From a virus (taxonomy: Duplodnaviria > Caudoviricetes): 44,323 bases of DNA. Numbering within the stretch: position 1 is the stretch's first letter; each line of letters begins with the position of its first letter. This document shows, in pieces, positions 6,041-44,323 of this stretch. The stretch is from IMG/VR virus record IMGVR_UViG_3300044796_000650, positions 1-44,323 of that record; one strand, 5' to 3'. A program made the position numbers and the translations under genes. The notes below the pieces were generated by a model. It made no database searches and was not told the origin of the DNA. It saw only the letters and a list, made by a program, of their open reading frames with translations.

Positions 6041-6041
6041 G

Positions 6042-15368: not shown

Positions 15369-15398
15369 GGTGTGGTGGTGTTTGGCTTTCGCTCACTC

Positions 15399-15428: not shown

Positions 15429-15460
15429 TGTGTGAACGGATGGTGTTCGTGCCGATCCGA

Positions 15461-28427: not shown

Positions 28428-28577
28428 ATGAAAACACCGAAGGAAAAGACAGAGCTTGCTGCATTCAAAATGCCGCGCGAACTGCGCGAGCAGGCGCGGG
28501 CGAAGGCGCGCGCCTCGGACCTCACATTTTCCCAGCTCATGCGCCGCGCCCTTAAGCGCGAACTGGAGGCCGCGTGA
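28428..28577 (+). CDS. Ribbon-helix-helix protein (Cro/Ner-equivalent position)
   Basis: 49 aa: AAFKMPRELREQARAKARASDLTFSQLMRRALKREL, typical RHH. Confidence 0.75.
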   Translation: MKTPKEKTELAAFKMPRELREQARAKARASDLTFSQLMRRALKRELEAA

Positions 28578-28676
28578 TGAATGCTACCGCATCAGCGCAT
28601 GAAGGACCAGCGCCGGAAGGCATGCCGGAGGGCAACGCAGGCCGCTGAATTTTTCAACCCTAACACCCAACATCCC

Positions 28677-28985
28677 ATGACCAACGCCACGAACCTCATC
28701 CACCGCCTCGCGGAACTCCGCGCGGGCGTGCTCTGCCGCATCCGCCTCAACTGGACGAAAACTGACAAATCGTTCCGTGCATTTTGGAACGCCGCCGATC
28801 ACTGCGAACACGTGAAGCTGCGCGCCTCGCTCGCCGCCATTGATTCCTGCGCGGACGCCGCGGAGGTGCTGCGCGAGGTACGCCATTCGACACGGCGGAT
28901 CTACCGCCGCCTGATCTCCCCCGGCGCGCGGGAGGAACTCACGATCGGCGGGACCGGTGAACGCGCCATGCAGCAAGCCGCCTGA
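28677..28985 (+). CDS. Hypothetical early protein
   Basis: ATG after A/C-rich leader; ORF open from 28581. Confidence 0.55.
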   Translation: MTNATNLIHRLAELRAGVLCRIRLNWTKTDKSFRAFWNAADHCEHVKLRASLAAIDSCADAAEVLREVRHSTRRIYRRLISPGAREELTIGGTGERAMQQAA

Positions 28986-28988
28986 CCC

Positions 28989-29516
28989 GTGCCCGCCTCC
29001 GCCTCCACGCAAATCCCGCCGCAGGTGAAGCAGGGCGATTTCCTCGCGCTGCTGTTCCGCCCGCTGCTCTCGCCGCAGGCGGCGGCATTCCTGCTGGAGT
29101 GCAGCGTGGACCACGTCGTGCGCATGGCGGATGCCAGCGAGGTCGTCGCGTGCAACGTGGCGCTGAAGATCGAGCGCGGCGACGAGGCGGTGGACGAACG
29201 CGCGCCCGAACGGATGATCCGCATCCTGCGCCCGAGCATCGAGCGGCTGGTGATTCCCGCCTACTCGAAGCAGGGCGGCAAGTGCCCCGAGCCCACCTTC
29301 GAGCAGGCGCTCGACAGCGTGCATCACCGCGCCACGTGGACGCGACGCGAGGTCACGCATTTCCTCGACTGCTCGGACGATCACGTGCGCCGCCTCACGG
29401 AGGCGAAGCTGCTCGGAGGCCCGCTCCTCACGCAGACCGGCAGCGGCCGTCTCCAGCACATCGCGCGCGCCTCGCTCGGCGAATTCCTCCGCGACCGCGA
29501 CCTCTCCCAAGCCTGA
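28989..29516 (+). CDS. Tandem excisionase-like HTH protein
   Basis: Two HTH_17-type repeats: LSPQAAAFLLECSVDHVVRM and WTRREVTHFLDCSDDHVRRL. Confidence 0.7.
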   Translation: MPASASTQIPPQVKQGDFLALLFRPLLSPQAAAFLLECSVDHVVRMADASEVVACNVALKIERGDEAVDERAPERMIRILRPSIERLVIPAYSKQGGKCPEPTFEQALDSVHHRATWTRREVTHFLDCSDDHVRRLTEAKLLGGPLLTQTGSGRLQHIARASLGEFLRDRDLSQA

Positions 29517-29529
29517 ACCCGCCACACCC

Positions 29530-29955
29530 ATGAACGCACCCATGAACGCACCCGGAAACATTGACGCACAGATCGAGTTGTCGCTTGTCCCCGCGCGCAA
29601 GCGCGGCCGCGTGACGCACGACATGGTCGAGGACTTCTGCGCGCTGCTGCGCTTCCGCGGCTGGCTGCGCGCGGAGGAAATCCTGCGCGAGCGCCCGCAG
29701 TGGCCCCAGGGCGACAATGGCAAGCGGCTCCTGAGCATCCTCGCCGGGGCCGCGAAGCTGCGCGTGATCAGCTATCCCGGCTCGCCCGGCTACCGGCTCA
29801 CCGCGGAGCTGAGCGACACGGACATCGAGCAGCTCGATCACGCGGGCAACGCGCTCATCCACCAGGGCCGCGACATGGCCCGCCGCGGCATCGCCTACAA
29901 GCGCCTCGCCGGAATCAAGCGCGCGGCCGTCGCGCAACGGGAGGGCGGGAACTGA
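29530..29955 (+). CDS. Hypothetical winged-helix-like protein
   Basis: GWLRAEEI...VISYPGSPGYRL pattern. Confidence 0.6.
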   Translation: MNAPMNAPGNIDAQIELSLVPARKRGRVTHDMVEDFCALLRFRGWLRAEEILRERPQWPQGDNGKRLLSILAGAAKLRVISYPGSPGYRLTAELSDTDIEQLDHAGNALIHQGRDMARRGIAYKRLAGIKRAAVAQREGGN

Positions 29956-29957
29956 TC

Positions 29958-30173
29958 ATGGGTGCCATGAGCGACATCGCGATGCTGGAGGCGGAATACG
30001 AGCGGGACATCCGCGCCCTGGAGCGCGCGTGCGAGGGTGGCGACGAACTTGCGATCGAGCATTGGGAGGACGTGGTGAACTGCTCGCGCCGCGCACTGCT
30101 CGAAGCGCGCGGGGAGGCGGACCCGCTCAACATTGACCGGGAACTCGGCGACTACCTCGCGGGAGAACACTGA
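29958..30173 (+). CDS. Small acidic hypothetical protein
   Basis: Fills gap in tightly packed operon. Confidence 0.55.
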   Translation: MGAMSDIAMLEAEYERDIRALERACEGGDELAIEHWEDVVNCSRRALLEARGEADPLNIDRELGDYLAGEH

Positions 30174-30178
30174 ATTTT

Positions 30179-30439
30179 ATGAGCACCCCGACCGCCGCAC
30201 ACATCACCGCCGAGGCGCTGGCCACGCCGCCGGCAAAGCCGCACCCGCGGCACTTCATGGAGGCCCTCCGAATCCTGCACGAGGAAAAGCTGATGACCTT
30301 CCCCGAGATCTCGGCGTGGTTCAAAAAGCGCGAACTGCCGTTCAGCCAGTCGGGCATCTGGGGCGCCTACCAGCAGCATCTCGGCGCGCAGGTGGATGCC
30401 CGCGCCGAGGCCGCGAAACAGAAAGCGGGAGCGCACTGA
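30179..30439 (+). CDS. Small HTH-like protein
   Basis: MTFPEISAWF...FSQSGIWGAY. Confidence 0.55.
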   Translation: MSTPTAAHITAEALATPPAKPHPRHFMEALRILHEEKLMTFPEISAWFKKRELPFSQSGIWGAYQQHLGAQVDARAEAAKQKAGAH

Positions 30440-30443
30440 ATTT

Positions 30444-31187
30444 ATGAAAGCAACAAAATTGACCCCGGAACAACGCGCGCCGCTCACGCTCTCATCGCTC
30501 GCCGTGCTGCCGCCCGTCGCGGGCAGCGAGGATGCGGAGATGGGGCGGCAACTCACCGAGCAATGGGAGCGCGTGAAGGCCAGCCGCCGCGAGGACCTCA
30601 TCTTCGGCGCGATGATGCTGAAGGTGCGGGAGCGAGTTGTGTCCGCGTGCGGACATAACTCCCGTCCACAGCGCGGACCCGGCAGTCAGGAAGGCAGTCT
30701 GAAAGATTGGATCGACAAGCACGCGCCGACCGTGTCGCGCAGCGTCGCGTATCGCCTGATGGAGATTGCCGAGGGCGTGCAGCAGGATTTCAAACTCGGC
30801 AAACTGGACCTGGCGCAACTGCTCATCGCGCAAGTGGAGGGCATGGATCCGCAGCTCGCGACAAAGCGCGCGCAGATCGAGGAAGTGATCGAAGGCAAAT
30901 CGCAGCGGCAGCTCCTGCTGGAATTCGGCAACGCCAAGCCGAAGGACCGCGGCGGCGCACGGACAACTTCGCCCGACAAGACCTACGACCCGAACGCGCC
31001 GATTGAGAATGCGCGCGACCTGCTGCTGCATCCGCTGCGCTCTGTCATGCTCCGCTGGCGCGAAAAGGAGGCGAAGCTCCCGCTGTGGGCGCACCTGCCG
31101 CCCGAGGAACTGCGCGAGATCGACGGCATCCTCCTCGACCTGCGCGCCGACCTCAAGGCGGCGCTGAAGACCGGCGAGGCGAAGTAA
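30444..31187 (+). CDS. DUF3102-like protein preceding transposase
   Basis: IFGAMMLKVRE...LKDWI...VSRSVAYRLMEIA pattern; synteny in Mu-like phages. Confidence 0.55.
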   Translation: MKATKLTPEQRAPLTLSSLAVLPPVAGSEDAEMGRQLTEQWERVKASRREDLIFGAMMLKVRERVVSACGHNSRPQRGPGSQEGSLKDWIDKHAPTVSRSVAYRLMEIAEGVQQDFKLGKLDLAQLLIAQVEGMDPQLATKRAQIEEVIEGKSQRQLLLEFGNAKPKDRGGARTTSPDKTYDPNAPIENARDLLLHPLRSVMLRWREKEAKLPLWAHLPPEELREIDGILLDLRADLKAALKTGEAK

Positions 31188-31199
31188 GGAATCCCCGTC

Positions 31200-33269
31200 A
31201 TGTCCATGATCCTCACCGTCCCCCACCACGATGTTCCCGAGTTTTCCGCGCTCCCGCTCGACGTGAAGATGGAGATCAAGGCGTGGCTGCGCGAGCTGGC
31301 CGTTGTCGCCCGCGCGTCGAACAAGCGGCAGGCTTTTGCGCGCGCCGCACACGTGCTGCATGCGAGCTGGCAGACGGTCCGGCGGAAGTATCACGCGATG
31401 CGCACCAGCGGCGACTGGCGGTGCCTCATCAATCGCGCGAAGGTGCGCGGCGAGGGCGAGCGCGTGCCGGATCCCATCGTCGAGGAATACGCGCGGCGCG
31501 CGGAGGGCAACCAGCGCAAGAGCCGGCCCGCGCACCGCGATCTGATGCGCGAGTGGCGCCGCGGCGAACTTTCGCACCTGCCCTGGCCGGAGCTGGACGA
31601 TCGCGGCCTACCTCGCGGGTGCAGCTACGACAACCTCATGCGCCGCCTGCGCGCGCGCGGCGGGCGTTCCTTCGAGCTGACCGCGATGCGCGACGGCCTC
31701 GGTGCGGCGCTCGGCGAGTTCGGCCCGAAGGTGCTCACCACGCGCGTCGGCCTGTGGGTGGGCAGCCACTACATTCCGGACGACGTGAAGCGCGACATCA
31801 AGGTGCTCATGCTGCGCGGGCAGGAGGCGTGCATCCAGGAACTCGGCGTGATGGACCTTTTCAGCGGCGACCGCTTCGCCGTGCATCGCCGCCCGCAGTT
31901 CGAGCGCGCGGACGGGACGAAGGACTCGCTGAAGGAACGCGAGATGCGCTTCCTCTTCGCGCACATCTTCCGCAACATCGGCTACTCGCCGCGCGGCACG
32001 GAGATTCCGGCGGAGAAGGGCACGGCGGCGGTGCGCAGGGCGCTCGCGAAATTCTTCCACGACCACAGCGGCGGAAAGATCACCGTGCGCGAGCCGGGCA
32101 TCATCGGCAGGGTGCAGGCCATCGCGGGATACTTTGGCCGCGGCGGCGGCAACCCGCGGCACAAGGCGCGGCTGGAGGCGCATCACAACCTGCTGCACAA
32201 CGAGGCCGCGCATCTGCCCGCACCGACCGGCCACGACCGCAACCCGCCCGAGTGGCTGCACGGCCTCCAGGCGATCACCGGCGACGTGATCAAGGAACTC
32301 GGACGCGACCCGAAGCGCGCGCAGCTCATGATCGCGCCGATGCTCGAGTACTGGCAGGCGTGCTCGCTGCTGCGGGAGATTGACGACCTCATCGCGTGGC
32401 GCACCGACCACGAGTTGGAAGGCTGGATCGAGTGCGGGCACACGCTCGTCGAGTGGCGTCGCGATGTGCTCGGCAACGAATGGCTGTCGCCCGAGCAGTT
32501 CCTCGCGCTGGACGCCGGGCAGCAGCAGATGCTCGTCACAGCCGCTTCGCTCATGCCCGCCCTGCGCCGGGCGCGGAAGCTCGCGCCGCGCGAAGTCTTC
32601 GGCGCGGGCATGAAGGAACTCGTGACGCTGCCGGATGCGGTGATCGCGCTCATGTTCTGCGACCGCGAACTCGGCGACGACCTGCGCCGCCCGAAGTCGC
32701 TGAACGCGGATGGCGACATCGAGATTCAGGATGGCGAGATTGCGCCCGACACGATGACCTTCGAGGGCACGCTGGCCGCGCCGGATGGTGGCAGCTACCG
32801 GCTCGCCGAGCGCACGAAGTATGGCGTGGTGGTGAGCCCATTCGAGGCCGGGGAAAAAACCGTGCTGTGGGTCTACGGGCCCCGCGGCGAATTTCTCGGC
32901 ACCGCCGCACGACGGATGCGCTCGAACCCCCACGACACCGCCGGCATCGAGCGCCAGCTCGGCCGCCGCGCGCACGAGATCAAGACGCTCCTCACGCCGC
33001 TCCAGGAACGCCACGCCGGAGCCGCCGCCGAGATCGAGGCCATCGCGGAGCACAACAGCCAGGTGCGCAAGGGCGGCCCTTCCGCGGAGGAACTGCGCGC
33101 TGCAAAGCGCGAGGAAGTGCGCATCGCCGCGGTGGATGGATCGCTTTCCGATTTCCTTGACGATGAACCGGCCAAGCCGGCGGACGCGCCCGCCGGTCCA
33201 TCCGGCTCGCTGCGCGACTTTCTCGACGACGAACCGGCGCTGCCGGCGGACGCGGAAGCGCAGCCCTGA
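31200..33269 (+). CDS. MuA-like DDE transposase
   Basis: 689 aa; HYIPDDVKRD, VMDLFSG, AEKGTA, GNPRHKARLEAHHN catalytic-region motifs; upstream of MuB-like ATPase. Confidence 0.85.
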   Translation: MSMILTVPHHDVPEFSALPLDVKMEIKAWLRELAVVARASNKRQAFARAAHVLHASWQTVRRKYHAMRTSGDWRCLINRAKVRGEGERVPDPIVEEYARRAEGNQRKSRPAHRDLMREWRRGELSHLPWPELDDRGLPRGCSYDNLMRRLRARGGRSFELTAMRDGLGAALGEFGPKVLTTRVGLWVGSHYIPDDVKRDIKVLMLRGQEACIQELGVMDLFSGDRFAVHRRPQFERADGTKDSLKEREMRFLFAHIFRNIGYSPRGTEIPAEKGTAAVRRALAKFFHDHSGGKITVREPGIIGRVQAIAGYFGRGGGNPRHKARLEAHHNLLHNEAAHLPAPTGHDRNPPEWLHGLQAITGDVIKELGRDPKRAQLMIAPMLEYWQACSLLREIDDLIAWRTDHELEGWIECGHTLVEWRRDVLGNEWLSPEQFLALDAGQQQMLVTAASLMPALRRARKLAPREVFGAGMKELVTLPDAVIALMFCDRELGDDLRRPKSLNADGDIEIQDGEIAPDTMTFEGTLAAPDGGSYRLAERTKYGVVVSPFEAGEKTVLWVYGPRGEFLGTAARRMRSNPHDTAGIERQLGRRAHEIKTLLTPLQERHAGAAAEIEAIAEHNSQVRKGGPSAEELRAAKREEVRIAAVDGSLSDFLDDEPAKPADAPAGPSGSLRDFLDDEPALPADAEAQP

Positions 33270-33302
33270 TCCCTCAACCCAAACACCCAAACCCAAACAC
33301 CC

Positions 33303-34469
33303 ATGATGCCACCAGCCGCACCCGCACCCACGCCCAAAGCGCCCGTCTCCATTCCCGTCGTGCCCCGCGATGACGAGCAGCTCGACTTCGCCGCGCTCAC
33401 CGGGACGATCACCATCACGCCCGCCAAACTGCGCGAGACCTACGCCGAGCACCTGGTCTCCGGCCTCGTGTCCGAGGATGAACTCGCCACCGTTCAGTGG
33501 CTCCTCACGCACGGCATTGACCTCAAGCTCTCCATCGCCGCGCTGGGCCGCACCTGCGGACTCGGCGAAGGCACGATGAGCAAGCTCGTGAACGGCCTCT
33601 ACGGCTCCGGCTCGCAGAAGGCCGGCACCTTCAAGCCCATCCCCATCACGGGCCTCTGCAAGACGGTCGAAGGCTACCGCGACCTCTACGAGCAGCGGCG
33701 CGCGATCAACAAGGCCGACTTCGTGGAGACGAGCATCTACCAGGAGATGAAGGCCGCGTGCGACACGGCGCTCGCCTACCAGACGATCTACCCCATCTAC
33801 GGCGATTCGCAGCTCGGCAAGACGACGGCGCTGGAGAAAATCCGCGACCGCGACAAATTCGGGCGCACCATCCTCGTGCCAATGCCGGCGATGGGGCACA
33901 TCGGCAAGTTCCTCATCGCGCTGAACAAGGCGCTCCGCGAAAGCACGAAGGCGCGCGGGGACCAGCTCTGGAACAGGCCGATGGAGGTCATCCGCAGTTC
34001 GCACCTGCTCATCATTGATGAAATCCACGAGACGACCGTGTCGCCGGGCCGCGGCGTCGCGCGGGTGAACACGCTCGAATACATCCGCCGCCTGTGGGAC
34101 GCGACGAAGTGCGGCCTCGTGCTGTGCGGAACGAACGTCTTCCGCGACGAGGTGGAGACCGGCACGCACGCCGCACTGCTGGAGCAACTGCGCCGCCGCG
34201 GCCTGCCTCCGCTGCAACTCCCGAGCGTGCTCCCGCAGGGCGACATGGACGCCATCGCGCGCGCCTACGGCCTGCCACCCGCGCCGGACGCCGTCCACGA
34301 GAAGCGCGAGGCGCTCGTGAAGACGACCGGCCTTCGCGCCTACGTGACGTTCCTGAAGATGGCCGCGAAGAAGGCCGACAAGGCGGACCGCAAGATCACC
34401 TGGGGAGACTTCATGTCCGCGCACGACATCACGAAAAAGCAGAGCCTGCCGGCGGGAGGTGCGAAGTGA
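33303..34469 (+). CDS. MuB-like AAA+ transposition ATPase
   Basis: N-terminal HTH; Walker A GDSQLGKT; Walker B LLIIDE; LEYIRRLWD, GLVLCG. Confidence 0.9.
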   Translation: MMPPAAPAPTPKAPVSIPVVPRDDEQLDFAALTGTITITPAKLRETYAEHLVSGLVSEDELATVQWLLTHGIDLKLSIAALGRTCGLGEGTMSKLVNGLYGSGSQKAGTFKPIPITGLCKTVEGYRDLYEQRRAINKADFVETSIYQEMKAACDTALAYQTIYPIYGDSQLGKTTALEKIRDRDKFGRTILVPMPAMGHIGKFLIALNKALRESTKARGDQLWNRPMEVIRSSHLLIIDEIHETTVSPGRGVARVNTLEYIRRLWDATKCGLVLCGTNVFRDEVETGTHAALLEQLRRRGLPPLQLPSVLPQGDMDAIARAYGLPPAPDAVHEKREALVKTTGLRAYVTFLKMAAKKADKADRKITWGDFMSAHDITKKQSLPAGGAK

Positions 34470-35179
34470 ACCGAGTGGAACGAGGTAGCTCGCCGCAGGC
34501 GACCCGCAGGGCAGCGCCGGAGGGCGCTGGCAACGCTGCGACCCGCAACCAGATCGAGATGCCGGACTCGTGGGAGGACTCGCTTGCGCCCGCGAAGTCG
34601 GACAAGCCGCGCTTTGCCCACGCTGCCGCGCTCGCGGTCGCGAAGGAACTGGTGGAGGTGATGCGTCCGCATTGCCGTCGCATCATCGTCGCCGGGTCGC
34701 TGCGGCGGCGGAAGCCGGATGTGGGGGATGTGGAGATTCTTTTCGTGCCGAGCGCCCGGCCCGAGCCGGTGGTGCGCGAGGACATGTTTGCCGAGCCGGA
34801 GTTCCTGCCCGCGACGGATGCGGTGATTGAATCCATGCTCGCGCGCGGGGTGATCGTGAAGCGCCCGAACATCATCGGCGGCACGTCGTGGGGCATGAAG
34901 AACAAGCTCGCGATCCACTGCGCGACCGGCATCCCGGTGGACCTCTTTGCGACGACGGACGCGGCGTGGTGGAACTACCTCGTGTGCCGCACGGGCGGCG
35001 CGGAGTCGAACGTGGCGGTCTGCCTGGCGGCTCAGCGCAAGGGGTGGAAGTGGAACCCGTATGACGAGGGATTCTCTGAGCGCAGCGGCCTCGCGAGGAA
35101 GGTGCATCCCGTGACGAGCGAGCGGGAGGTCTTTGAACTTGTCGGCCTCGAATACCGCGAGCCGTGGGAGCGCTTCTGA
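34466..35179 (+). CDS. Minimal X-family DNA polymerase/nucleotidyltransferase (palm+thumb)
   Basis: AGSLRR..PDVGDVEIL, VDLF, RTG, EREVFELVGLEYREPWER; GTG overlaps MuB stop (ATG 34559 alternative). Confidence 0.85.
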   Translation: MNRVERGSSPQATRRAAPEGAGNAATRNQIEMPDSWEDSLAPAKSDKPRFAHAAALAVAKELVEVMRPHCRRIIVAGSLRRRKPDVGDVEILFVPSARPEPVVREDMFAEPEFLPATDAVIESMLARGVIVKRPNIIGGTSWGMKNKLAIHCATGIPVDLFATTDAAWWNYLVCRTGGAESNVAVCLAAQRKGWKWNPYDEGFSERSGLARKVHPVTSEREVFELVGLEYREPWERF

Positions 35180-35212
35180 ACTTTTTCAACAACAACCCAG
35201 ACCCAAAAACAC

Positions 35213-35398
35213 ATGGCTAAGAAACTCGACCCACAAATCAAACAGGACCGCGCCGAATTGCGCGAGCGGCGGACGCAGTTGCGTTCGCTCGTGAACACTC
35301 ACAAGTCGGCGTTGAAGACGCTCGACAAGGCATACACCAAGGCCCGCGCCGAACTGGAGACGCGCATCAGCATCATCACCGGGAGGCTCGGCAAATGA
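35213..35398 (+). CDS. Small coiled-coil protein
   Basis: A/C-rich leader, 61 aa. Confidence 0.6.
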   Translation: MAKKLDPQIKQDRAELRERRTQLRSLVNTHKSALKTLDKAYTKARAELETRISIITGRLGK

Positions 35399-35901
35399 GG
35401 ACCAAAGCCGCCATCGCCGCCGATGTGGATGAGGGCCTGCGCCTCGTCCGCGAAATCTCCGCGCTGAAGGAAAAGCTGAAGCCCGTCGCGGCCCGGCTGA
35501 AGAAGGATGCCATCGCCGCGCCGCACGAGCACGAGCCGCTGAAGGACGCGGACCGCGAGGGAATGCAGTTCACCGCGCACGGATCGAACGGAGCCGCGCT
35601 GCGCATCGTCATCACCGCGGACAAGCTCGTGCTCACCTTCCCGGATGGCTCCGAGCTGCACCAGCGCATCGCGGAGGCCGCGGGCGAATCGTTCGGCCTC
35701 TTCTACCAGCCGCACACCGAATGGCAGGCGCTGGCGAAGGACGGCAAAGCCTTCCGCACCGCCGCCCGCGTGATCCTCGGCGACGACAAGGCCCCGGCCT
35801 TCATCGCCCAGGTGCGCGATCTCAAAAAGAGCGGCCTGCCGAAGAACGACGTGAAGCTCGAATGGCCCGGCGAAGGGGAAGAAGGCGAGGTGTCGGAGTG
35901 A
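35395..35901 (+). CDS. Hypothetical early protein (size/position reminiscent of Mu Gam, not confirmed)
   Basis: 168 aa, N-terminal coiled coil; ATGA overlap. Confidence 0.55.
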   Translation: MRTKAAIAADVDEGLRLVREISALKEKLKPVAARLKKDAIAAPHEHEPLKDADREGMQFTAHGSNGAALRIVITADKLVLTFPDGSELHQRIAEAAGESFGLFYQPHTEWQALAKDGKAFRTAARVILGDDKAPAFIAQVRDLKKSGLPKNDVKLEWPGEGEEGEVSE

Positions 35902-36143
35902 AAGCGGAAATCGAAGCCTTGCAGCGCGAGCTGCTCGCGGCGGTCGCTGACATCGGCGGCATGGCCACGAATCTCACCGAGGCCCGCGACTGGATGCAGG
36001 ACATGCACGCCGGTGAGGCGAAGCTGAGCCTGGAAGCCGTCTCTGCCGGTGCCGTGGATGCCACGGAACGCCTGCGCACCATCGCGCTGAAGTGCGAGGA
36101 ACTCTGCGCGGGCGCTGCCGCGAAGAAAGGGGCGGGAAAATGA
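35898..36143 (+). CDS. Small helical hypothetical protein
   Basis: GTGA overlap upstream, ATGA overlap downstream. Confidence 0.6.
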   Translation: MKAEIEALQRELLAAVADIGGMATNLTEARDWMQDMHAGEAKLSLEAVSAGAVDATERLRTIALKCEELCAGAAAKKGAGK

Positions 36144-36292
36144 GTGAGGCGACGACATGGCGGTTCTTCCGCGACGGGGAGCCTGCGCACATCGTCGAGG
36201 CCGGGCCGGTGATGCTGCTCACGCTGTGCGGGCTGTCGTTCAACGATTTAGCTGACCCAAGCGGTGGAGGCGTCGGCCAGAAAGCCCAGTGA
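36140..36292 (+). CDS. Small protein running into attC1
   Basis: MSEATTWRFF..H..TLCGLSFN then attC-encoded tail. Confidence 0.55.
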   Translation: MSEATTWRFFRDGEPAHIVEAGPVMLLTLCGLSFNDLADPSGGGVGQKAQ

Positions 36293-36359
36293 TCCACCAA
36301 ACAAACAACAGCGCCAAACTGAAACGCGGGACCGCTTTGGGTCCGGCGACTTGTTAGGC
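36238..36359 (-). other. attC1 recombination site
   Basis: Minus strand GCCTAAC-aagtc-GCCGGACC...GGTCAGC-taaatc-GTTGAAC, 122 bp. Confidence 0.85.
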
Positions 36360-36376
36360 CACAACGAGTAAAACAA

Positions 36377-37429
36377 ATGAAGCAAACCGTGAAATTCATC
36401 CGCGTAATCGGCGGACAAGATGATGGTGACACGCTCAAGGTAGAAAAACCGTGGGAAGTGGACGCGAGCGAAGTGATGCACATTGAGGCCGATGGAGAAC
36501 GATACAAACTCGACCACATCGAAAATGAAACTGCTGTCTTTGTGCATGATGGTTTTGTGGCCGAACGCAGAAGTGAGCCACGGCGGGGACGGAAAATGAT
36601 GAACGTAAAACCAACATTTGAACTGGAAAGCAGCGTCGAGCGCACGGCAATCCCGCCGTTGTGCTCCACTGATTTGTTGGGCGGCAATTTCGTGGACAAA
36701 CTCATTCGTGGCGACTGTCTGGAAGTGATGAAGGCAATGCCCGATGGCAGCGTGGACGCGGTAATAACTGACCCGCCCTACTGCTCCGGCTCTGTGTCCG
36801 AAGCCTCGCGCACGGCAGCGAAAGGCCAAGGGCTGCGGTCGGAGAACATCCAACGCCTCGGATGGTTCGTGGGCGACAACATGGGAACGGCTGGCCTCGT
36901 GTGGCTCATCCGCTCGATGGCAGTGGAATCTCTGCGGCTGCTCAAGGGTAACGGCTCGCTGCTCATCTTCTGCGACTGGCGCATGATACCGAACCTCATC
37001 CCCGCCGTGGAGTCTGCGGGCTTCCGATACCAGAACCTCATCGTGTGGGACAAGACGCACATGGGCCTCGGCAATGGCTTCCGCGCACGCCACGAACTGA
37101 TAATGCACATGACCGCTGGCAGTCCTGCCTACCACGACAAAGGCACAGCGAATGTGATGCAGTGCAAGCGCGTCAGCGCCGATGACCGCGAACACCAAAC
37201 ACAGAAGCCGGTGGAACTAATAGCGCAACTCGTGCGCGTGGTGTGTCCGCCGGGCGGTGTGGTGCTAGACCCATTCGCGGGAAGCTGCACGACCGCGCAA
37301 GCGTGCGCCGAAACGGGACGGCACTACGTCTGCATCGAACGCGATCTCGACCACTGCGAAACCGGACGGCAAAGGCTCACTGCTACCGAGCGCGATCTCT
37401 TGCCGCCCAACGACAAAATCCAGCCATGA
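36377..37429 (+). CDS. Beta-class DNA N6A/N4C methyltransferase (own ATG 36596, cassette B), fused in frame to the small cassette-A ORF from 36377
   Basis: GDCLEVM, VITDPPY, IVWDK, HQTQKPVEL, VLDPFAGS motifs; N-terminal VIGGQDDG small-protein domain. Confidence 0.9.
   Translation: MKQTVKFIRVIGGQDDGDTLKVEKPWEVDASEVMHIEADGERYKLDHIENETAVFVHDGFVAERRSEPRRGRKMMNVKPTFELESSVERTAIPPLCSTDLLGGNFVDKLIRGDCLEVMKAMPDGSVDAVITDPPYCSGSVSEASRTAAKGQGLRSENIQRLGWFVGDNMGTAGLVWLIRSMAVESLRLLKGNGSLLIFCDWRMIPNLIPAVESAGFRYQNLIVWDKTHMGLGNGFRARHELIMHMTAGSPAYHDKGTANVMQCKRVSADDREHQTQKPVELIAQLVRVVCPPGGVVLDPFAGSCTTAQACAETGRHYVCIERDLDHCETGRQRLTATERDLLPPNDKIQP
36560..36682 (-). other. attC2 recombination site
   Basis: Minus strand GCCCAAC-aaatc-AGT[G]GAGC...GCTCACT-tctgc-GTTCGGC, 123 bp. 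Confidence 0.9.
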
Positions 37430-37535
37430 GCGACAAAATAAAATCACGCCTCGAAATGCAGATAGCTGCCGAAATGAAATTCCAAGCCGACAAAGCCGAT
37501 GAGCAAAGCTCATTGGCTGCGATGCCGGGTTCGGC
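37405..37535 (-). other. attC3 recombination site
   Basis: Minus strand GCCGAAC-ccggc-ATC[G]CAGC...GCTGGAT-tttgtc-GTTGGGC, 131 bp. Confidence 0.9.
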
Positions 37536-37788
37536 GTCCGGCCCGTCATACTGCGCGAGCTGTGGCGAGTGGCCGGCCAGTATGACGCCAAATGGTCTGC
37601 GGTGTCATCTATGCGCGTGCCGCGAACACGCCGCCGCCAACCCCGTGCCGCTACCAAGCAACCGAGAAATGCTGAAAGACCTCGCCTCAATCGGAGTTCC
37701 AGGAGCGGCTGACAAACTGCAAAGGACGCCGAACGACCCAAGCTCACCCACAGCCGGGGGCGGCAGTGGTGGAGCGCAACCAAAATAA
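37426..37788 (+). CDS. Cassette C protein, CxxC...CxxC zinc-finger-like
   Basis: ATG inside attC3 overlapping MTase TGA; CASC and CHLC; stop inside attC4. Confidence 0.7.
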   Translation: MSDKIKSRLEMQIAAEMKFQADKADEQSSLAAMPGSASGPSYCASCGEWPASMTPNGLRCHLCACREHAAANPVPLPSNREMLKDLASIGVPGAADKLQRTPNDPSSPTAGGGSGGAQPK

Positions 37789-37855
37789 TCAATGAAGAAA
37801 AAAGCATCGAACGTAAAGAGGACACCGGCTGTTGCGGTGCAGCGCGTTGTTAGCC
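37728..37855 (-). other. attC4 recombination site
   Basis: Minus strand GGCTAAC-aacgc-GCT[G]CACC...GGTGAGC-ttgggtc-GTTCGGC, 128 bp. Confidence 0.88.
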
Positions 37856-38139
37856 AGCCGACCGAGCGCGAGAAACGCCAGTGGTGGGCTGTCGCGGAAG
37901 ATGACGTGCAACTTGTCACGGGATATTCGTGTGCTCCAACTAATCCCGAAATGTGGTGGTGTCCCAAAGTCGGCTCATCAATGAGCGAGAAATACCACCT
38001 ATTCGAGACGGAAGGCGAGGCGATAAACAAGCTCATCTCCGAACTCACCCGCCGAATCGAAGTCGCGGCGGACAACATCGAAGCCCTCAAACGTAGGCTG
38101 GCTAACAGTGTATTGAACAAACTGAGGTCGGATAAATGA
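37792..38139 (+). CDS. Cassette D hypothetical protein
   Basis: ATG inside attC4; reads through attI; stop overlaps intI ATG. Confidence 0.7.
   Translation: MKKKASNVKRTPAVAVQRVVSQPTEREKRQWWAVAEDDVQLVTGYSCAPTNPEMWWCPKVGSSMSEKYHLFETEGEAINKLISELTRRIEVAADNIEALKRRLANSVLNKLRSDK
38100..38118 (-). other. attI site (core G/TTAGCC plus L box GTTCAAT)
   Basis: Minus strand GTTCAAT-acact-GTTAGCC, 17 bp from intI start; TTAGCC complements attC4 R''. Confidence 0.8.
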
Positions 38140-39119
38140 AGACCGGAGTCATTGCCAGATTGCGGGAGGTCGCGAAGGTTCGCATCGGGGATCGGGAGGC
38201 GCTTTGCGATCGGACGGTGGAGACTTATTCGCAGTGGGTGCGAAAGTTTTTCCGCGACACAGGGAAGCCTGCGACGCAGTGGGTGGATGAGGACATCACG
38301 CGATGGATGGCTCGGCTCTCGGACGAGGGCTATGCGTGGAAGTCGCGGTCGCAGGCCCTGTGCGCGATCATCTATGTCTTCAAAAACGTGCTCTCGGTGA
38401 AGGTGGGGGATCTGAATCTGCCGAAGGCTCCGAAGCAACATGCGACGCTGAAGGTGATCCCGACGCGCGAGGAACTGGCGCGCATTTTCTCCGGCCTGCG
38501 CGGGCAGCCGCGGCTGATGGCCGGTGTGATGTATGGCGCGGGCCTTCGCGTGGAGGAGTGTTGCACGCTGCGGGTGAAGGATGCGGACTTCGCGGCGCGG
38601 ACGATCCGCGTGCATGACGGCAAGGGCGGAAAGGATCGGCTCACGCTGCTGCCCGCTGCGCTCGATGCGGCGCTGCGCAGGCAGGTGGCGTGGCGGGCGG
38701 CGCTGCACGATCGCGACCTCGCGGAGGGTGCGGGATTCGTGGAGCTGCCTGGGCGGCTGGCGCTCAAATACAAATCGGCTCCGCGGGAGTTGGGCTGGCA
38801 GTTTCTTTTTCCCTCGGCGGTGATCCGCGGGCAGCGGCGCTGGCACGCGGTGCCGGAGGGAGTGCAGAAGGCGATGCGCGCGGCGGTGAAGGCGGCGGGC
38901 CTGACGAAGCCGGTGACGCCGCACACGCTGCGCCACGCATTTTGCACGCACGCGCTCCAGGCGGGGAATGACATCGCGACGGTGCGGCAGCTCCTCGGGC
39001 ACGCGGATGTGGCGACGACGATGATCTACATGCACGGGGATCGTGCGCGCGGGGTGAGTCCGCTGGATGCGGGGGGCGTGCTGCCTGCGATGCCGGTGCA
39101 GATCGGAGGCCCTCGATGA
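38136..39119 (+). CDS. intI: Integron integrase
   Basis: Tyrosine recombinase R-K-H-R-H-Y intact (GLR, GKGGKDR, HTLRH, LGH, IY) plus IntI-specific VELPGRLALKYKSAPRELGWQFLFPS insertion. Confidence 0.95.
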   Translation: MKTGVIARLREVAKVRIGDREALCDRTVETYSQWVRKFFRDTGKPATQWVDEDITRWMARLSDEGYAWKSRSQALCAIIYVFKNVLSVKVGDLNLPKAPKQHATLKVIPTREELARIFSGLRGQPRLMAGVMYGAGLRVEECCTLRVKDADFAARTIRVHDGKGGKDRLTLLPAALDAALRRQVAWRAALHDRDLAEGAGFVELPGRLALKYKSAPRELGWQFLFPSAVIRGQRRWHAVPEGVQKAMRAAVKAAGLTKPVTPHTLRHAFCTHALQAGNDIATVRQLLGHADVATTMIYMHGDRARGVSPLDAGGVLPAMPVQIGGPR

Positions 39120-39217
39120 AAGCGAACAATCTGCCTGTGGGCGCGCTCCGTCGCGCGGCGAAGAAGGAAGGCTGGGGCCGGGTCAACGGCGGAGATTACT
39201 GCCCGGAGGCCATGTGA
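39116..39217 (+). CDS. 33-aa peptide coupling intI to dnaB
   Basis: ATGA overlap with intI stop and TGATG overlap with dnaB; AKKEGW...DYCP motif. Confidence 0.5.
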   Translation: MKANNLPVGALRRAAKKEGWGRVNGGDYCPEAM

Positions 39218-40632
39218 TGAGCGACCCACTTACAGGATCGAAGCGCGAGAAGCGGAAGGTCTCCTACCCCCCGGATTTTCACCGCGAGACGCCGCATGAT
39301 GCGGATGCGGAGAAGGGCGTGCTGGCGTCGTGCTTGCTTGCGCCGAAGGAGGTGATCGGGCTGGCAGTGGAGTCGGGCGTGGTGCGGGAGGCGTTTTACA
39401 TTCCGGCGCACGGGGAGATTTTTGAGGCGCTGCTGGCGCTGTGGAATGCCGGGAAGCCGGTGGATTTCATCACGCTTGCAGGGCACTTGCGCGATGCGTG
39501 CAGGCTCGACCAGGTGGGCGGTGCGCCCGCGCTGAATGACCTGTTCACCTTTATCGGGACGGCGGCAAACGCGGGCTGGTATGTCGAGATCGTGCTGGAG
39601 AAGTGGCTGCGGCGGCGCGTGATCGCGGTGTGCTGCGAGCACGCGGCGCGCGGCTACGAGGACGACGAGACGGCGCGGCTGATTGACGATGTGGAGCGCG
39701 CGATTTTCGAGATTTCCCAGCAGCGCGCGCACGGCAAGTCGCGGCGGCGCTCGGCGAAGGAGCTGGCAATCGCGGCCATCGGCACGATCGAAAAGATCTA
39801 CGCGAGTGGCGGAAAAATCACGGGTATGGAGACGGGCTTCCGCGAACTGGATCAGATGACGGACGGCCTGCACGGCTCGGAGATGATCGTGATCGCGGCG
39901 CGGCCCTCGATGGGAAAGACGGCGTTCGCGATGAACATCGCGGAGCATGTGTGCATGACGGGCAATGTGCCCGTGGCGGTTTTTTCTCTGGAGATGAGCG
40001 ACGAGCAGCTCATGCAGCGGATGCTGTGCAGCGCGGCTCGCGTGAACATCAAGAGCCTGCGGAACGGCTTCCTGGGCGAGCGGGATTTTCCCGCGCTCAC
40101 TGCGGCGTCCGGCAGGCTCGCGGCGGCCCCGCTTTTCATAGATGATGAGGGGACAATCTCGATCATGGACCTTCGCGCTCGGGCGCGTCGGCTGAAGGCG
40201 CAGCACGGCATCGGGCTCATCGTGATTGACTACCTGCAACTGCTGCGGAGCACTTCGCGCAAGGCGGCGGACAACCGGCAGATCGAGATTTCGGAAATCA
40301 GTGCGGGTATCAAGGGTCTCGCGAAGGAGCTGCGCATCCCGATCGTTGTGCTCGCACAGCTCAACCGGCAGGTGGAGCAGCGCGGAGGCGGCAGGCCGCG
40401 GCTGAGCGACCTGCGCGAGAGCGGGAGCATCGAGCAGGATGCCGATGTGGTGGGGCTGCTGGTGCGCGAGGAATACTACGCCGAGGGCGAGGAGGCGAAG
40501 GCGGAGGCCGCGGGCAAGGCGACCCTCATCATCGCCAAACAGCGCAACGGCCCCGTGGGCGACGTGCCGCTGACTTTCATCAAGGAATACACGCGCTTTG
40601 AGGACCGGGCGCGGGAGGCCGCTCCATGCTGA
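39217..40632 (+). CDS. dnaB: Replicative DNA helicase
   Basis: AEKGVL, AARPSMGKT, FSLEM, IVIDYLQL, QLNR, PRLSDLRESGSIEQDAD, IIAKQRNGP. Confidence 0.96.
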   Translation: MSDPLTGSKREKRKVSYPPDFHRETPHDADAEKGVLASCLLAPKEVIGLAVESGVVREAFYIPAHGEIFEALLALWNAGKPVDFITLAGHLRDACRLDQVGGAPALNDLFTFIGTAANAGWYVEIVLEKWLRRRVIAVCCEHAARGYEDDETARLIDDVERAIFEISQQRAHGKSRRRSAKELAIAAIGTIEKIYASGGKITGMETGFRELDQMTDGLHGSEMIVIAARPSMGKTAFAMNIAEHVCMTGNVPVAVFSLEMSDEQLMQRMLCSAARVNIKSLRNGFLGERDFPALTAASGRLAAAPLFIDDEGTISIMDLRARARRLKAQHGIGLIVIDYLQLLRSTSRKAADNRQIEISEISAGIKGLAKELRIPIVVLAQLNRQVEQRGGGRPRLSDLRESGSIEQDADVVGLLVREEYYAEGEEAKAEAAGKATLIIAKQRNGPVGDVPLTFIKEYTRFEDRAREAAPC

Positions 40633-41330
40633 GCGCGGCCACGATGAAGTTTTACCGCTGCCTGTGGGGGCAGCTACGGGATGCGAAGGGGCTGAAGGAA
40701 GCCGACCGCAAGCCGCTTCACGCGCATCTCGGGCTGCCGGCGTCGAGCAAGGATTTCACGCCGGAACATTTCGACACGTGGAAGGGCCATGTGCTCGCCC
40801 AGGTGCGGCCGGACCTCGATACGCAGATCGCCCAAATCGATATGCCGCGCACGCGCAAGCTGGTCTTCATCGGCCACCTCCTCACCGCACTGGAGCGGGT
40901 GCAGGAGCACGCGGAGCTGCTCGTGCGCTCCCTGCGCGAGACGGAAGGCCACATGCGGCGGCGGCGGAAAGGCGATGGCCGCATGGGCCGGAGCGGCCAG
41001 ACGCTGGAGCAGCTCTCGCTGGCCGGCCTGGACTCCGTGCGCAATGCGCTGAAGGACGAATGCCGCGCGCGATGGGATACGAAGGATGCGCTGCTCGGCG
41101 AGATTCAGACCGTGAGGATGGATCGGCAGATATTCGGCAGCGCGACAGCGCTGGAGGCGGTCCGTGAGGCGCTGAATCTGGAGACACTCCCGGTCCTGAA
41201 CGATCTCGATTACGAGCATCTCCTCGTCGCGCTGTCCACCCTGCGACGGCTCGCGGGCGCGGAGGTGATTTTCGCGCCCGTGGCTTCGGAGGCAACGTCC
41301 GCGAGGGAAACGGCGGACATCCCTTTTTGA
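40626..41330 (+). CDS. GemA/gp16-like protein ending in DIPF
   Basis: GLKEADRK...SSKDFT pattern; last gene of early arm. Confidence 0.5.
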   Translation: MLSAATMKFYRCLWGQLRDAKGLKEADRKPLHAHLGLPASSKDFTPEHFDTWKGHVLAQVRPDLDTQIAQIDMPRTRKLVFIGHLLTALERVQEHAELLVRSLRETEGHMRRRRKGDGRMGRSGQTLEQLSLAGLDSVRNALKDECRARWDTKDALLGEIQTVRMDRQIFGSATALEAVREALNLETLPVLNDLDYEHLLVALSTLRRLAGAEVIFAPVASEATSARETADIPF

Positions 41331-41487
41331 AAATGCTCGTGGCCCGAATTCTGCCGCGCTTTCCAGTGCCATGCAAGGCTCGTGCATCGATGTCCGTAAG
41401 GCCGAATTCGTGACCCATACCATTGCAAACTCTCCCGTTTCAGGGCTGAAGAGACTCAAAACGCCCATCCTCCTATGATCACCCCGA

Positions 41488-41551
41488 GTTTCCCCGCATT
41501 TCCCCCCTATTCCGGGCTATTCCGCTGTCTCAAACCAGTTGCCCCGGCTCA
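41488..41551. other. Candidate prophage right end (terminal CA)
   Basis: 10-bp phased TTCC units (41490-41523), TGTCTCAAAC (echoed by GACTCAAAAC at 41453), ending GGCTCA; sequence character changes afterwards. Confidence 0.5.
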
Positions 41552-41603
41552 CTCCGGACGCTCTCCGGTAACCTCCGGACGCTCTCCGGTAATTACCGGA
41601 GAG
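41552..41603. repeat. 20-bp direct repeat pair plus 22-bp perfect palindrome
   Basis: CTCCGGACGCTCTCCGGTAA at 41552 and 41573; CTCTCCGGTAATTACCGGAGAG at 41582-41603. Confidence 0.85.
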
Positions 41604-41839
41604 GTGTAGAAAACCGCACTTTCAGCGAAAAGCAGTGCTTTTTCGTTGAAAACGACCGTTTTCCATGCGGATGCCACCCATTCCCAAACGGAGGCCATCG
41701 CTTCTCACACTGCGCGGAGTCCAGTTCATCCTGCGCATCCTGCCAATCCTGTCCCCAAAGTCCCCGGAGCTTGGTGCCAGCGCGCAATCCTGCCTGCGGG
41801 CGGCGGGGCCGGGCTTTGGACAGGGGGTTCCAGATTGGC

Positions 41840-42059
41840 TGCCTGTCCGGTATGTTGACAACGCTACGGGAAACCGTGGTGACAATAGCCCAGCGATTCA
41901 TCGCTGGGAACCGAACGGAACAAAGGGACAAAGTCCCGCAGGGACGGAAGAACCGGTCCTGCCGTCCCTTGCGGGACTTTGCCCGCATCCCACCCCCACA
42001 CCCAGCGATGAATCGCCGGGCTATTGTCAAAGCCGCTTTGTCAACTAACCGGACAGGCA
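41840..42059. repeat. Nested REP/MITE-like palindrome (host)
   Basis: Outer arms 41840-41861/42038-42059; 28-bp arms 41881-41908/42001-42028 (1 mismatch); inner hairpin ~41925-41984. Confidence 0.8.
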
Positions 42060-42179
42060 TGGGACTTTGCCCGTTTCCCCTTCCCTTCACCCGGCACTGA
42101 AGCGCCGGGCTATTCCATGAACCCTCCCCGTGCCTGTCATTGTCAGCCAACCGGTTCAGCAGGGCTGGCTCTCCCGCAA

Positions 42180-43811
42180 TTACGCCCGTGCCGAACGTTC
42201 GCGACGCCGCCTGCGCCACGCGAGGAACAGGAGCAGGCACAGGCCGAGGTGGACGGCGAGAAACAGGACCAGCGGACCAAATGATCCGGCGTCGCCTTTC
42301 CCCAGTTGATTGATCCACTGGATGGGCTGCCACGGTGCGCTCAGCGCGGACAATGCCACGATGTATTGCGCGGTGTCGGAGTAGCGGTTGGCGATCGAGA
42401 TGAGGACAAGGCTGGTGAACAGCGGGACGAAGCCGGCGAGGAAGACGGTCACCCACGTCGCGCGGCGTCCGGCGGTCTCGATGAGGAAATGGAAAAGCGC
42501 ACCCACGACGAGAATGGTGCCGGTGAACACGGCCCACCCCGGCGGGGGAAATCCGGCGCCCTCGAATGCGGGCGGCGTGAGCAGGTGCCGCACGACGATC
42601 GCCCATGCCAAACCCGAAAGCCCGGCGGCAATCCACGCGAAAGGCGCGGCGGTGGCCCCGTCGGAGCACCACGGAATGCGGGACTGCGCGAATTTCTTCT
42701 TCCTGCGAAAGGCGATCATCTGCGTGTCCTCCTTCGGGGTGATGCAGGAAATCACGGGCAACAGCAGGAGCAGGCTGATGACGCCGTAGAGGACGCCGAG
42801 GGCGCGCGCTTCGTAACGCCCGGTGAGGCTGTAAACTTCGGGCGAAAATATTCCGCGGCTTTTTAACACGTTGGTGATGACGCTGCCGCGCCCGAGCAGC
42901 GGGAGCACGTTGCCGAGGAGGATGACCTGAATCCAGATCAGGAAGCCGACCGCGTAGCACTTGCCGAGCAGGTGCGCCTGTTCATCCCGCCAGCGGCGCA
43001 CGAGGATGATGATGAACGTCAGGATCAGCGAGCCCTGCACGATCAGCGAAAACGCGAGGTGCGACACATTCAGCCCGAAGAAAAGCACGCTGGGGCTCGA
43101 TATGCTTTGCGGAACGTTGCCCCACATGCCGCGCCATTGCGGGGTGAGGTCGAGGAAGTTCGCCATGATCACCGGGCGAATCGTGAGATGGGAAAAGATG
43201 ATGAAGCCGAAGTTGGCGAGATTCGGCAGGACAAAATTCAGGATTATCACGAACCCGAGCGAAATCACCCCGGCACGCCAGCGGGACTTGATGATCAGGC
43301 CCGTGATGAGCGCGAGCAGGTGGTAGAGGATCGCGGAACTGAAGAAGACGAGATACACCGGACCCCACGCCTTCAGCGGGATTTTCCCGATGAGAATCGA
43401 AAGCGCGCTGAAGATCGCGGTGACGGCAAAGGAGACGTATTGCCGTGCGGGAAGCCCGAAAAGATAGCCGAGCACTTTCGCCAGCGGCGAAAGCGGTGTG
43501 AGCCGCTGATACTCGATCATCCCCTCCTCCGCCTCCTGGAGAATCCCCGAGCCGACGGCGCCCGTGCCGAGGAACATCACGAAGACCGCCTGCAGGATGA
43601 GCAGCGGAAGAAACGCCGCGCGCGCGGCATCCGCCTCGCTGAGATTCCCGCGGTAGCGCAGCGGCAGGTAGGAAATCGTGGCGATGAAACCGGCGAGGAC
43701 CAGCGCGACCACGATCGTGACGCCAAGCCACACGGGCCGCAACCGTGAGCGCCAGTACCGGCGGAGAATCGGGTTGCCGGGAAGGTTTGCGGCGGAAGGA
43801 GGCTCGCTCAT
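42180..43811 (-). CDS. ABC transporter permease-like membrane protein (host)
   Basis: Multi-TM; NPILRRYWRSRLR start and EAEEGMIEYQRLTPLS..KVLGYLFG ABC-2-type motif; coupled to ATPase. Confidence 0.8.
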   Translation of the reverse strand: MSEPPSAANLPGNPILRRYWRSRLRPVWLGVTIVVALVLAGFIATISYLPLRYRGNLSEADAARAAFLPLLILQAVFVMFLGTGAVGSGILQEAEEGMIEYQRLTPLSPLAKVLGYLFGLPARQYVSFAVTAIFSALSILIGKIPLKAWGPVYLVFFSSAILYHLLALITGLIIKSRWRAGVISLGFVIILNFVLPNLANFGFIIFSHLTIRPVIMANFLDLTPQWRGMWGNVPQSISSPSVLFFGLNVSHLAFSLIVQGSLILTFIIILVRRWRDEQAHLLGKCYAVGFLIWIQVILLGNVLPLLGRGSVITNVLKSRGIFSPEVYSLTGRYEARALGVLYGVISLLLLLPVISCITPKEDTQMIAFRRKKKFAQSRIPWCSDGATAAPFAWIAAGLSGLAWAIVVRHLLTPPAFEGAGFPPPGWAVFTGTILVVGALFHFLIETAGRRATWVTVFLAGFVPLFTSLVLISIANRYSDTAQYIVALSALSAPWQPIQWINQLGKGDAGSFGPLVLFLAVHLGLCLLLFLAWRRRRRERSARA

Positions 43812-44323
43812 TGTCCGGCCTCCTGTGAGACTTGGATCAGGATTTCCTCGAAGCTCGCCTGACGTTCCTCGAAGCGGCGCACGGCGATTCCCTGCTGCAC
43901 GAGGCCCGTCAGCAAGGCCGCCTGTTCGCGCTCGTCGCCCGCAAGATCAAAGCGGAGTTGCAGCTTTTCCCATCGCAGCGCGGCGACGCCGGGCAGGCCC
44001 GTGAGAAAAGACGCCGCCCGCCCGACATGCACTTCCTCCAGCACGGTGATCTCGATCACGCGCGTGCCGCCGCCGAGCTTCCGGCGCACCTCCTCGGCGG
44101 TGCCGGAAATGACCAGCTTTCCCTTTACGAGAATGCCGAGGCTCGTGCACATCTCGGCCAGTTCGCTGAGGATGTGCGAGCTGGCGATGATCGTCGTGCC
44201 GTCGCGGGCGAGGGAGCGCAGCGTCTGCCGCAGCGCAATGCGCGACATCGGGTCCATGCCGCTCGCCGGCTCGTCGAGAATCATCACGCGCGGGCGGTGA
44301 ATCAGCGTCTTCGCGAGCACGAG
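43808..44323 (-). CDS. ABC transporter ATP-binding protein (5' truncated by window)
   Basis: ILDEPASGMDP (Walker B/D-loop), SSHILSEL (H-loop). Confidence 0.9.
   Translation of the reverse strand, partial: LVLAKTLIHRPRVMILDEPASGMDPMSRIALRQTLRSLARDGTTIIASSHILSELAEMCTSLGILVKGKLVISGTAEEVRRKLGGGTRVIEITVLEEVHVGRAASFLTGLPGVAALRWEKLQLRFDLAGDEREQAALLTGLVQQGIAVRRFEERQASFEEILIQVSQEAGQ

Follow-up and report, generated by a model that had tools for sequence, protein, structure and literature searches.

The integrase gene and its recombination sites

The window analysed here is the whole of virus record IMGVR_UViG_3300044796_000650 (Caudoviricetes), 44,323 bases long, and the system under study is an integron-like array at 36238-39119: an integron integrase gene (intI), an attI recombination site next to it and four cassettes, each with its own attC site, set among the plus-strand genes of a Mu-like phage. 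The intI gene (38136-39119, plus strand) encodes a protein of 327 amino acids (aa), which scores 270.7 bits against TIGR02249 (cut-off 265) and whose closest match in the PDB is VchIntIA (2A3V, E 2e-50). Alignment to 2A3V revealed both the R-K-H-R-H-Y residues of a tyrosine recombinase (R138, K163, H263, R266, H289 and Y298) and the insertion specific to IntI proteins; across 70 aligned sequences of the clade the catalytic residues are invariant or nearly so and the IntI-specific domain is kept. The gene is intact and starts 32 nt from the attI crossover, so that the locus is not a CALIN (cluster of attC sites lacking an integron integrase nearby). Its ATG overlaps the stop codon of the newest cassette gene (ATGA), while its own stop overlaps a small open reading frame (ORF), which in turn overlaps dnaB.

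In a quick tree of 86 rows the window IntI falls in a 29-row clade (SH-like approximate likelihood ratio test, SH-aLRT, 99), whose members lie mostly in Mu-like phages and are also found beside Bet, primosomal and DnaB genes. Over 16 pairs of close relatives, none including the window itself, the ratio of non-synonymous to synonymous substitution rates (dN/dS) of intI was 0.03-0.09 and, to judge from these ratios, intI is under purifying selection. Both results support the inference, made in an earlier sequence-only reading of this DNA, of a phage-domesticated integron.

The attI site (38100-38135, minus strand) lies beside the 5' end of intI and appears to be organised as expected, with an R box, the crossover at 38104-38106, a 5-nt spacer and an L-like box at 38112-38118. 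In relatives this site is conserved up to the AAC of the crossover and unrelated past it. Specifically, in six relatives with IntI proteins 85-95% identical, attI is near-identical up to AAC, and nine 300-nt stretches preceding the crossover share no blastn match. Across the clade a further conserved box, AAC-N3-GTT-like in sequence, separates the L box from the intI ATG (about 38120-38133 in the window); its candidate roles are those of an operator or of an accessory site for IntI.

A member of the Verrucomicrobiota is the likely host: a Chthoniobacter bin (L090) includes a short contig with a 65% identical IntI, and a prophage of that class (L291) carries another clade member. Within the likely host class, 301 genomes were searched and 40 IntI regions taken from them as bacterial controls; 26 attC sites from bacterial chromosomes of this class were used to build a covariance model. 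Run unfiltered over the 44-kb window, the model gave four matches only (E 5e-7 to 6e-6), all on the minus strand and identical to the four strong sites, every one on the minus strand, found by a box scanner; among 300 shuffles of 36001-38200, three gave one scanner match and none gave more. The sites are attC A (37728-37855, 128 bp, 35.8 bits, E 6e-6), attC B (37405-37535, 131 bp, 39.6 bits, E 9e-7), attC C (36560-36682, 123 bp, 38.7 bits) and attC D (36238-36359, 122 bp, 40.9 bits). By our own model of 26 bacterial sites, they have the R''/L''/L'/R' arrangement with extrahelical bases and point away from intI. The cassettes, delimited on the minus strand by the scanner and, for the newest, by the covariance model as well, are cassette A, adjoining attI (37734-38105, 372 bp), B (37411-37733, 323 bp), C (36566-37410, 845 bp) and D, the oldest (36244-36565, 322 bp).

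The intact IntI, adjacent attI and four minus-strand attC sites of 122-131 bp described in the sequence-only reading are thus borne out by TIGR02249, the scanner and the covariance model; the failure of an attC covariance model, which it had named as grounds for rejection, did not occur, the bacterial model matching 4 of 4 sites. Its statement that the 5' core of each cassette complements its own R'' holds perfectly for three cassettes, but with one mismatch in the oldest. The outer core of attC D (36238-36244) matches GTTRRRY and probably represents the right half, now displaced, of the original site of insertion; no matching core was found upstream of the array, in 35200-36240.

In the window, intI, attI and attC keep the normal divergent geometry, and in 49 loci the host-derived model gave 103 matches, all minus relative to intI after two loci (L270 and L290) had been turned. 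We considered whether this polarity had been misread and the locus is instead an inverted-integrase integron, with ordinary sense cassettes, plus-strand attC top strands and attI far to the left. The near-palindromic attC sites leave room for such a misreading, since complementarity between core and R'' is the same under either polarity and alone cannot fix it, and a phage with the inverted-integrase design does exist: Virus Rctr41k, in which IntI is co-oriented with downstream sense cassettes. However, a model trained on attC sites of sense cassettes matches the minus strand only, and protein tails switch at the left-hand AAC. Minus-strand polarity is assigned because the extra L'' base lies on the arm adjoining the minus-strand AAC, an attC site stands at the left end of the array and a conserved non-attC site stands at the 5' end of intI. 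With intI on the plus strand and the attC top strands on the minus strand, the misreading is largely refuted and we regard it as highly improbable.

Orientation and phasing of the cassette genes

All four window genes lie on the plus strand, opposite to the sense of their attC sites. The gene of cassette A (37792-38139, 115 aa) begins in the loop of its own attC, which on the plus strand contains both the stop codon of the previous gene and the start codon of this one, and it ends in attI, which on the same strand encodes its C-terminal tail and stop. Among the protein and its 14 homologues, compared as proteins and not in DNA context, the Asn at the crossover is kept in 10 of 15 aligned rows and is followed by 10 different tails. 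The N-termini encoded by attC (37792-37860 in the window; homologues P0121-P0134) also vary, and the comparison suggests that gene bodies may sometimes change their own attC.

The gene of cassette B (37426-37788, 120 aa, two CxxC motifs) overlaps the methyltransferase stop with its ATG; its protein gave no match in family searches, and the gene is putative, proposed from its frame fit. Cassette C carries an orphan N6/N4 DNA methyltransferase (36596-37429; PF01555, E 2e-32; phrog_67, E 3e-58), whose start lies within attC. The gene of cassette D (36377-36598) belongs to a family of stand-alone proteins of 62-74 aa: a full HMMER search found three full-length homologues, 41-63% identical, while a word-index search found no relative. 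No confirmed relatives of cassettes A and D were found in viral contigs. A 350-aa fusion frame joining the cassette D gene and the methyltransferase is possible at 36377-37429; the homologues of D stand alone. Outside the array, a flanking phage ORF (36140-36292, plus strand, no family match) crosses the outermost AAC in frame and stops within attC D.

The relatives were gathered with IntI and the 70-row alignment, and each cassette was assigned the orientation of its longest ORF, both strands being considered. The genome and metagenome scans yielded mostly XerC/D-like loci, which were excluded, and L172, L180, L185, L187 and L203 were left out as duplicates before counting. Among the 94 cassettes of 30 related loci (viral, metagenomic or prophage), 84 had their longer ORF in antisense and 9 in sense, with one tie; among the 31 cassettes of 12 bacterial-genome loci, 27 had it in sense. 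Three of the four bacterial exceptions sit in L270 and L290, both of which carry phage genes. PHROG matches were obtained for 29 of 96 antisense ORFs and for none of 84 sense ORFs; the matched ORFs comprise 15 DNA methyltransferases, four 3'-phosphoadenosine-5'-phosphosulfate (PAPS) reductase-like proteins, one Mom-like, one Lar-like and one RNA-binding protein, and seven of unknown function. Reversed genes are a family trait. The other possibility raised by the sequence-only reading, that the real ORFs are on the minus strand, did not materialise, since families (the methyltransferase), homologues (the 115-aa protein with 14 and the small protein with three) and the PHROG matches place the genes on the plus strand.

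A second IntI clade (L195, L196, L198 and L200), whose tested members pass the TIGR02249 cut-off, likewise has reversed arrays, with up to 14 cassettes. A separate origin of the two clades was not supported, an approximately unbiased (AU) test on 27 rows (LG+G4) not rejecting one clade (p-AU 0.279). One cassette is common to two IntI clades, with 78% nucleotide identity.

Further arrangements were noticed among the relatives. L270 and L290 are prophage-like regions of bacterial genomes, with reversed cassettes and IntI proteins outside the clade of the window. The L201 phage has, 4-5 kb downstream of its intI, a second cluster of four attC sites (14784-16078) with the same polarity. Within the attC array of L003, a plus-strand block of four genes (3969-7238) encodes a Cas7-like protein (PDB matches Cas7c, E 5e-6, and Csf2, E 0.003), two proteins not assigned to any named family and a PAPS reductase/CysH-like protein; the neighbouring intI is reduced to its last 37 residues. 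The block resembles a CRISPR-Cas module of type IV-B, here in the form of a reversed cassette.

Phasing was analysed on 98 cassettes, namely the 94 of the relatives and the four of the window, in 87 of which the longer ORF is antisense and reaches 50 aa or more. Where these ORFs cross the cassette junction, AAC is read in frame in 63 of 66 cases and in other frames in three; eight of the 87 stop on the TAA of TAAC. A stop in the AAC frame is found inside attC in 92 of 98 cassettes, compared to 58 and 44 for the other two frames (22, 21 and 16 of 28 in the bacterial controls), and a plus-strand ATG inside attC in 85 of 98, against 7 of 28 controls. The attC centres are A-richer on the bottom strand than those of controls (0.30 vs 0.18). 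Starts follow the same pattern: 64 of the 87 ORFs begin within their own attC and 56 have an in-frame ATG there, which in 24 of the 56 overlaps the AAC-frame stop as ATGA. In the window itself, three of four genes begin within their own attC, and three of four read through the crossover, where AAC is an in-frame Asn codon, to a stop inside the following attC or attI. L195 contains two exact copies of a 233-bp cassette, with two different protein tails. By this evidence, cassette genes take their C-terminal tail from the neighbour and, in the window, three of four cassette genes would be joined to their neighbours inside recombination hairpins. The exact duplicate, the differing arrays behind near-identical attI sites and the cassettes common to IntI lineages lend weight to the shuffling that the sequence-only reading had inferred.

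The distance from the crossover to the intI ATG, which is 32 nt in the window, is 26-38 nt in 28 of 33 relatives and would leave no room for an integrase promoter outside the cassette. A different source of expression would be promoters inside single cassettes, as in cassettes of toxin-antitoxin type, driving the reversed genes in place of the early operon, with the frame fit as a by-product. Self-promoted cassettes are known as exceptions (PMC5027507), and some cassettes of relatives have long A+T-rich gaps with promoter-like text by eye. Yet in the window the ORF-to-ORF gaps over 36377-40632 are only -4 to +3 nt, no plus-strand sigma-70-like site was found in 27800-44323, and the 63/66 frame lock would have no reason without read-through. 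We hold this explanation to be very unlikely.

A proposed mechanism and its relation to known integrons

We propose, at a probability of about 80%, that the phage owns this integron system of intI, attI and four attC cassettes with reversed genes, and that accessory genes, DNA methylases among them, are likely reshuffled by it as exchangeable modules of a one-directional early transcript. The gene order suggests expression from a phage early promoter, production of IntI in lytic growth and a promoter-distal position of the newest cassette. IntI recombination activity, the plus-strand transcript and translational coupling are what we infer from these features. IntI would excise cassettes by attC x attC recombination and insert them at attI through the known route, in which the folded bottom strand is selected and new cassettes enter at attI (PMC5027507). 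Because intI follows the direction of the operon and lies only 32 nt from the crossover, it would be transcribed by read-through, without a promoter (Pint) or SOS control of its own, and its translation would be coupled to the newest cassette gene. Since intI lies in the direction of the one-way phage operon, only reversed cassettes would be expressed; an ordinary cassette entering attI would be antisense to the operon and silent, and reversed-gene cassettes would thus be selected. Each attC loop would give an in-frame stop to any upstream gene and a start to its own, and therefore the genes would form one unbroken coupled chain in any cassette order, exchanging tails whenever they are reshuffled. 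The bottom, recombinogenic strand would here be the non-template strand, and transcription aiding its folding is speculation. The cargo, rich in DNA methyltransferases, likely serves counter-defence.

Several observations weigh against this proposal. The sequence-only reading had all cassette ORFs on the plus strand and running toward intI; this stands for the strand of the four genes, but the oldest breaks the frame rule and is open in a different frame into the methyltransferase of cassette C. In the wider set, 13 of the 87 antisense ORFs fall short of the junction, and for 31 attC contains no in-frame ATG. Orientation was scored mostly through the longest ORF, and by eye some cassettes of L002/L013 and L003 appear to carry promoters of their own or minus-strand genes. 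The window IntI clears its cut-off narrowly, and two of three tested clade relatives fall below it (258 and 238 bits; the third reaches 283). Because it misses six residues of one VchIntIA hairpin and has RRWH in place of RRHH, its site preference may differ. Concerning the attC sites, attC C is the only one in the window whose best predicted fold is the recombinogenic hairpin; the other three bottom strands lie 2.9-6.2 kcal/mol above their best fold, and the fold z-scores range from -1.85 to +0.40, so that recombinogenic folding may be rare. Finally, no excision joint assignable to this phage was seen in contigs of four public runs covering 33000-41500.

Joints near attC sites did occur in those runs; their sides were shorter than 30 nt, they are likely from attC sites of other organisms, and they were rejected. 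In run X6 one piece, near-identical to part of cassette A, stops at 38106, the point at which another with 14 differences begins; this is a weak hint only. The RNA-library run X2 contains exact-match contigs over the array, one of them bridging cassette A, attI and intI (37881-38369); these were not counted as proof of transcription, the contigs being strandless and DNA possibly present. A Verrucomicrobia LexA motif occurred neither in the window nor in any of the 40 bacterial controls and is uninformative.

The array may also be real and yet be shuffled in trans by a host IntI, or frozen, with the phage intI a passenger or serving another task, for instance as a resolvase. Consistent with this, IntI scored above the cut-off in 92 of the 301 genomes of the likely host class, the window attC sites fit the host-derived model, L003 retains its array next to a truncated intI, and the four contig runs revealed no excision. 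Such a passenger is difficult to reconcile, however, with the strong purifying selection on intI, with its constant position beside a conserved attI while downstream cassettes differ wholly between close relatives, and with the retention of the IntI-specific domain and catalytic residues across the 70 aligned sequences. We consider this alternative unlikely, and favour a phage-owned system.

On its features, this system would work like an integron, having the IntI, attI and attC components; we do not file it as a canonical one, as its four genes are antisense to attC and not promoterless genes in sense for expression from the cassette promoter (Pc). Compared to sedentary chromosomal and class 1 integrons (2A3V; PMC5027507, PMC8946536), it is alike in the IntI insertion and catalytic residues, in the divergent geometry of intI and array and in the R box, 5-nt spacer and L-like box of attI, and its attC sites fit the model made from chromosomal arrays of the Verrucomicrobia class. 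In contrast, its genes run antisense to attC and toward intI, space for Pint would be lacking and Pc would serve no purpose, the attC loops contain start and stop codons and the crossover is an in-frame codon, and the cargo is of phage type (methyltransferases, PAPS reductase-like, Mom-like and Lar-like proteins). In known integrons intI has its promoter Pint, usually under LexA control, and the cassettes are expressed from Pc (PMC8946536, PMC11551772); in the window, a promoter scan found no minus-strand promoter-like site within intI or attI.

The premise of the sequence-only reading that integrons come mainly from chromosomes, plasmids and transposons needs amending, phage integrons being in print. 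Qi et al. 2023 (PMC9892861) reported three complete integrons and 17 CALINs in 10,705 phage genomes, found that IntI1 recombines phage attC sites and proposed methyltransferase cassettes as anti-restriction. IntI, attI and attC in phage genomes and methyltransferase cassettes are common to both studies; however, the three complete integrons of that study are captured fragments of host or class 1 integrons, whereas here IntI belongs to a phage-associated clade and is built into the early operon. The sections of text of Qi et al. that were consulted, figures excluded, make no mention of reversed genes. With our scanner and model, one site was detected in TJE1, in the sense direction of its genes, and no convincing attC site in P12002L.

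Inverted-integrase or 'reverse' integrons (PMC4889954, PMC13323075, PMC9668308) share with the window the common direction of transcription of intI and cassette genes. They flip intI and keep the genes in sense to attC, whereas here intI and attC are regular and the genes are flipped within the cassettes. In Virus Rctr41k (L294, KX853513; 4680-10101) the gene annotated as xerD encodes a true IntI (383 bits); it runs in the direction of its operon, and five or six attC-like sites, with genes in sense, lie downstream of it. This phage appears to use the inverted-integrase route to co-orientation. Top-strand recombination (PMC5027507) also yields insertions in the opposite orientation, with genes facing away from Pc, as a rare error silencing the gene. 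Such events flip gene and attC together, while here attC polarity is normal, the reversal is systematic (84/94 cassettes) and the genes are built for read-through. The unusual part is thus the reversed, frame-locked cassette design, which the sequence-only reading had described only in part. No description of it was found in a literature search that reached few subscription journals and no bioRxiv supplements, and it may be in print.

Integrons are regarded as devices for bacterial adaptation that need insertion in sense behind Pc in order to function (PMC5027507), and anti-phage defences are stored in chromosomal arrays (bioRxiv 10.1101/2024.07.02.601686). If phages own a version whose reversed, translationally phased cassettes are rich in DNA-modification genes, the integron machine would also stand on the other side of this arms race, and part of the mosaicism of phage early regions would be explained by site-specific instead of illegitimate recombination. 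The system offers a natural design for order-independent operon assembly, is compact and amenable to a standard attC x attI assay, and would give a handle on cassette genesis because gene ends and attC arms evolve here as one sequence.

We further put forward, tentatively and leaning slightly against it, a wider mirror-image economy: reversed, frame-locked cassettes might form a pool shared across unrelated phages and IntI lineages and mutually silent with host integrons, the attC loop acting as a universal translation connector and integrase synthesis being coupled to translation of the newest cassette. If so, a host defence cassette entering a phage attI would be antisense and unexpressed, a phage counter-defence cassette in a host array would be antisense to Pc, and the array would control its own reshuffling through the coupling of the integrase to the newest cassette.

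The surrounding phage genes

PHROG matches place the head genes (terminase, portal and protease) on the minus strand, left of about 28.3 kb, whereas a plus-strand chain of ORFs at 28581-41330 includes a likely MuA, a MuB-like ATPase, a DNA polymerase beta-like ORF and DnaB. The likely MuA-like transposase (31200-33269, plus strand) was recognised through ESM Atlas feature scores of 0.94-0.95 to Mu-transposase clusters, and homologues of this ORF stand upstream of MuB-like genes in relatives. It gave no match in Pfam or PHROG, direct BLAST and a small HMM were also unsuccessful, and PDB matches to repeat proteins were discarded, no stretch passing. The MuB-like transposition ATPase follows at 33303-34469 (plus strand; phrog_296, E 8e-28; AAA_22 and TniB). 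With a MuA/MuB pair heading the early block, MuA by Atlas features only, and with head genes present, the record is that of a Mu-like transposable phage. Downstream of intI, the same gene chain continues with the DnaB helicase (39217-40632, plus strand; phrog_19, E 4e-108). A repeat finder and Rfam gave nothing informative over the window.

The early transcript likely starts in the A+T-richer gap (28340-28430) from which the leftward and rightward gene blocks diverge; the promoter scan made no call there. Directly 3' of the MuB-like gene, the DNA polymerase beta-like ORF (34466-35179) shows thumb and palm domains. Two small divergent ORFs (28039-28577) flank the A+T-richer gap and look ribbon-helix-helix-like by eye; they are a candidate lysis/lysogeny switch.

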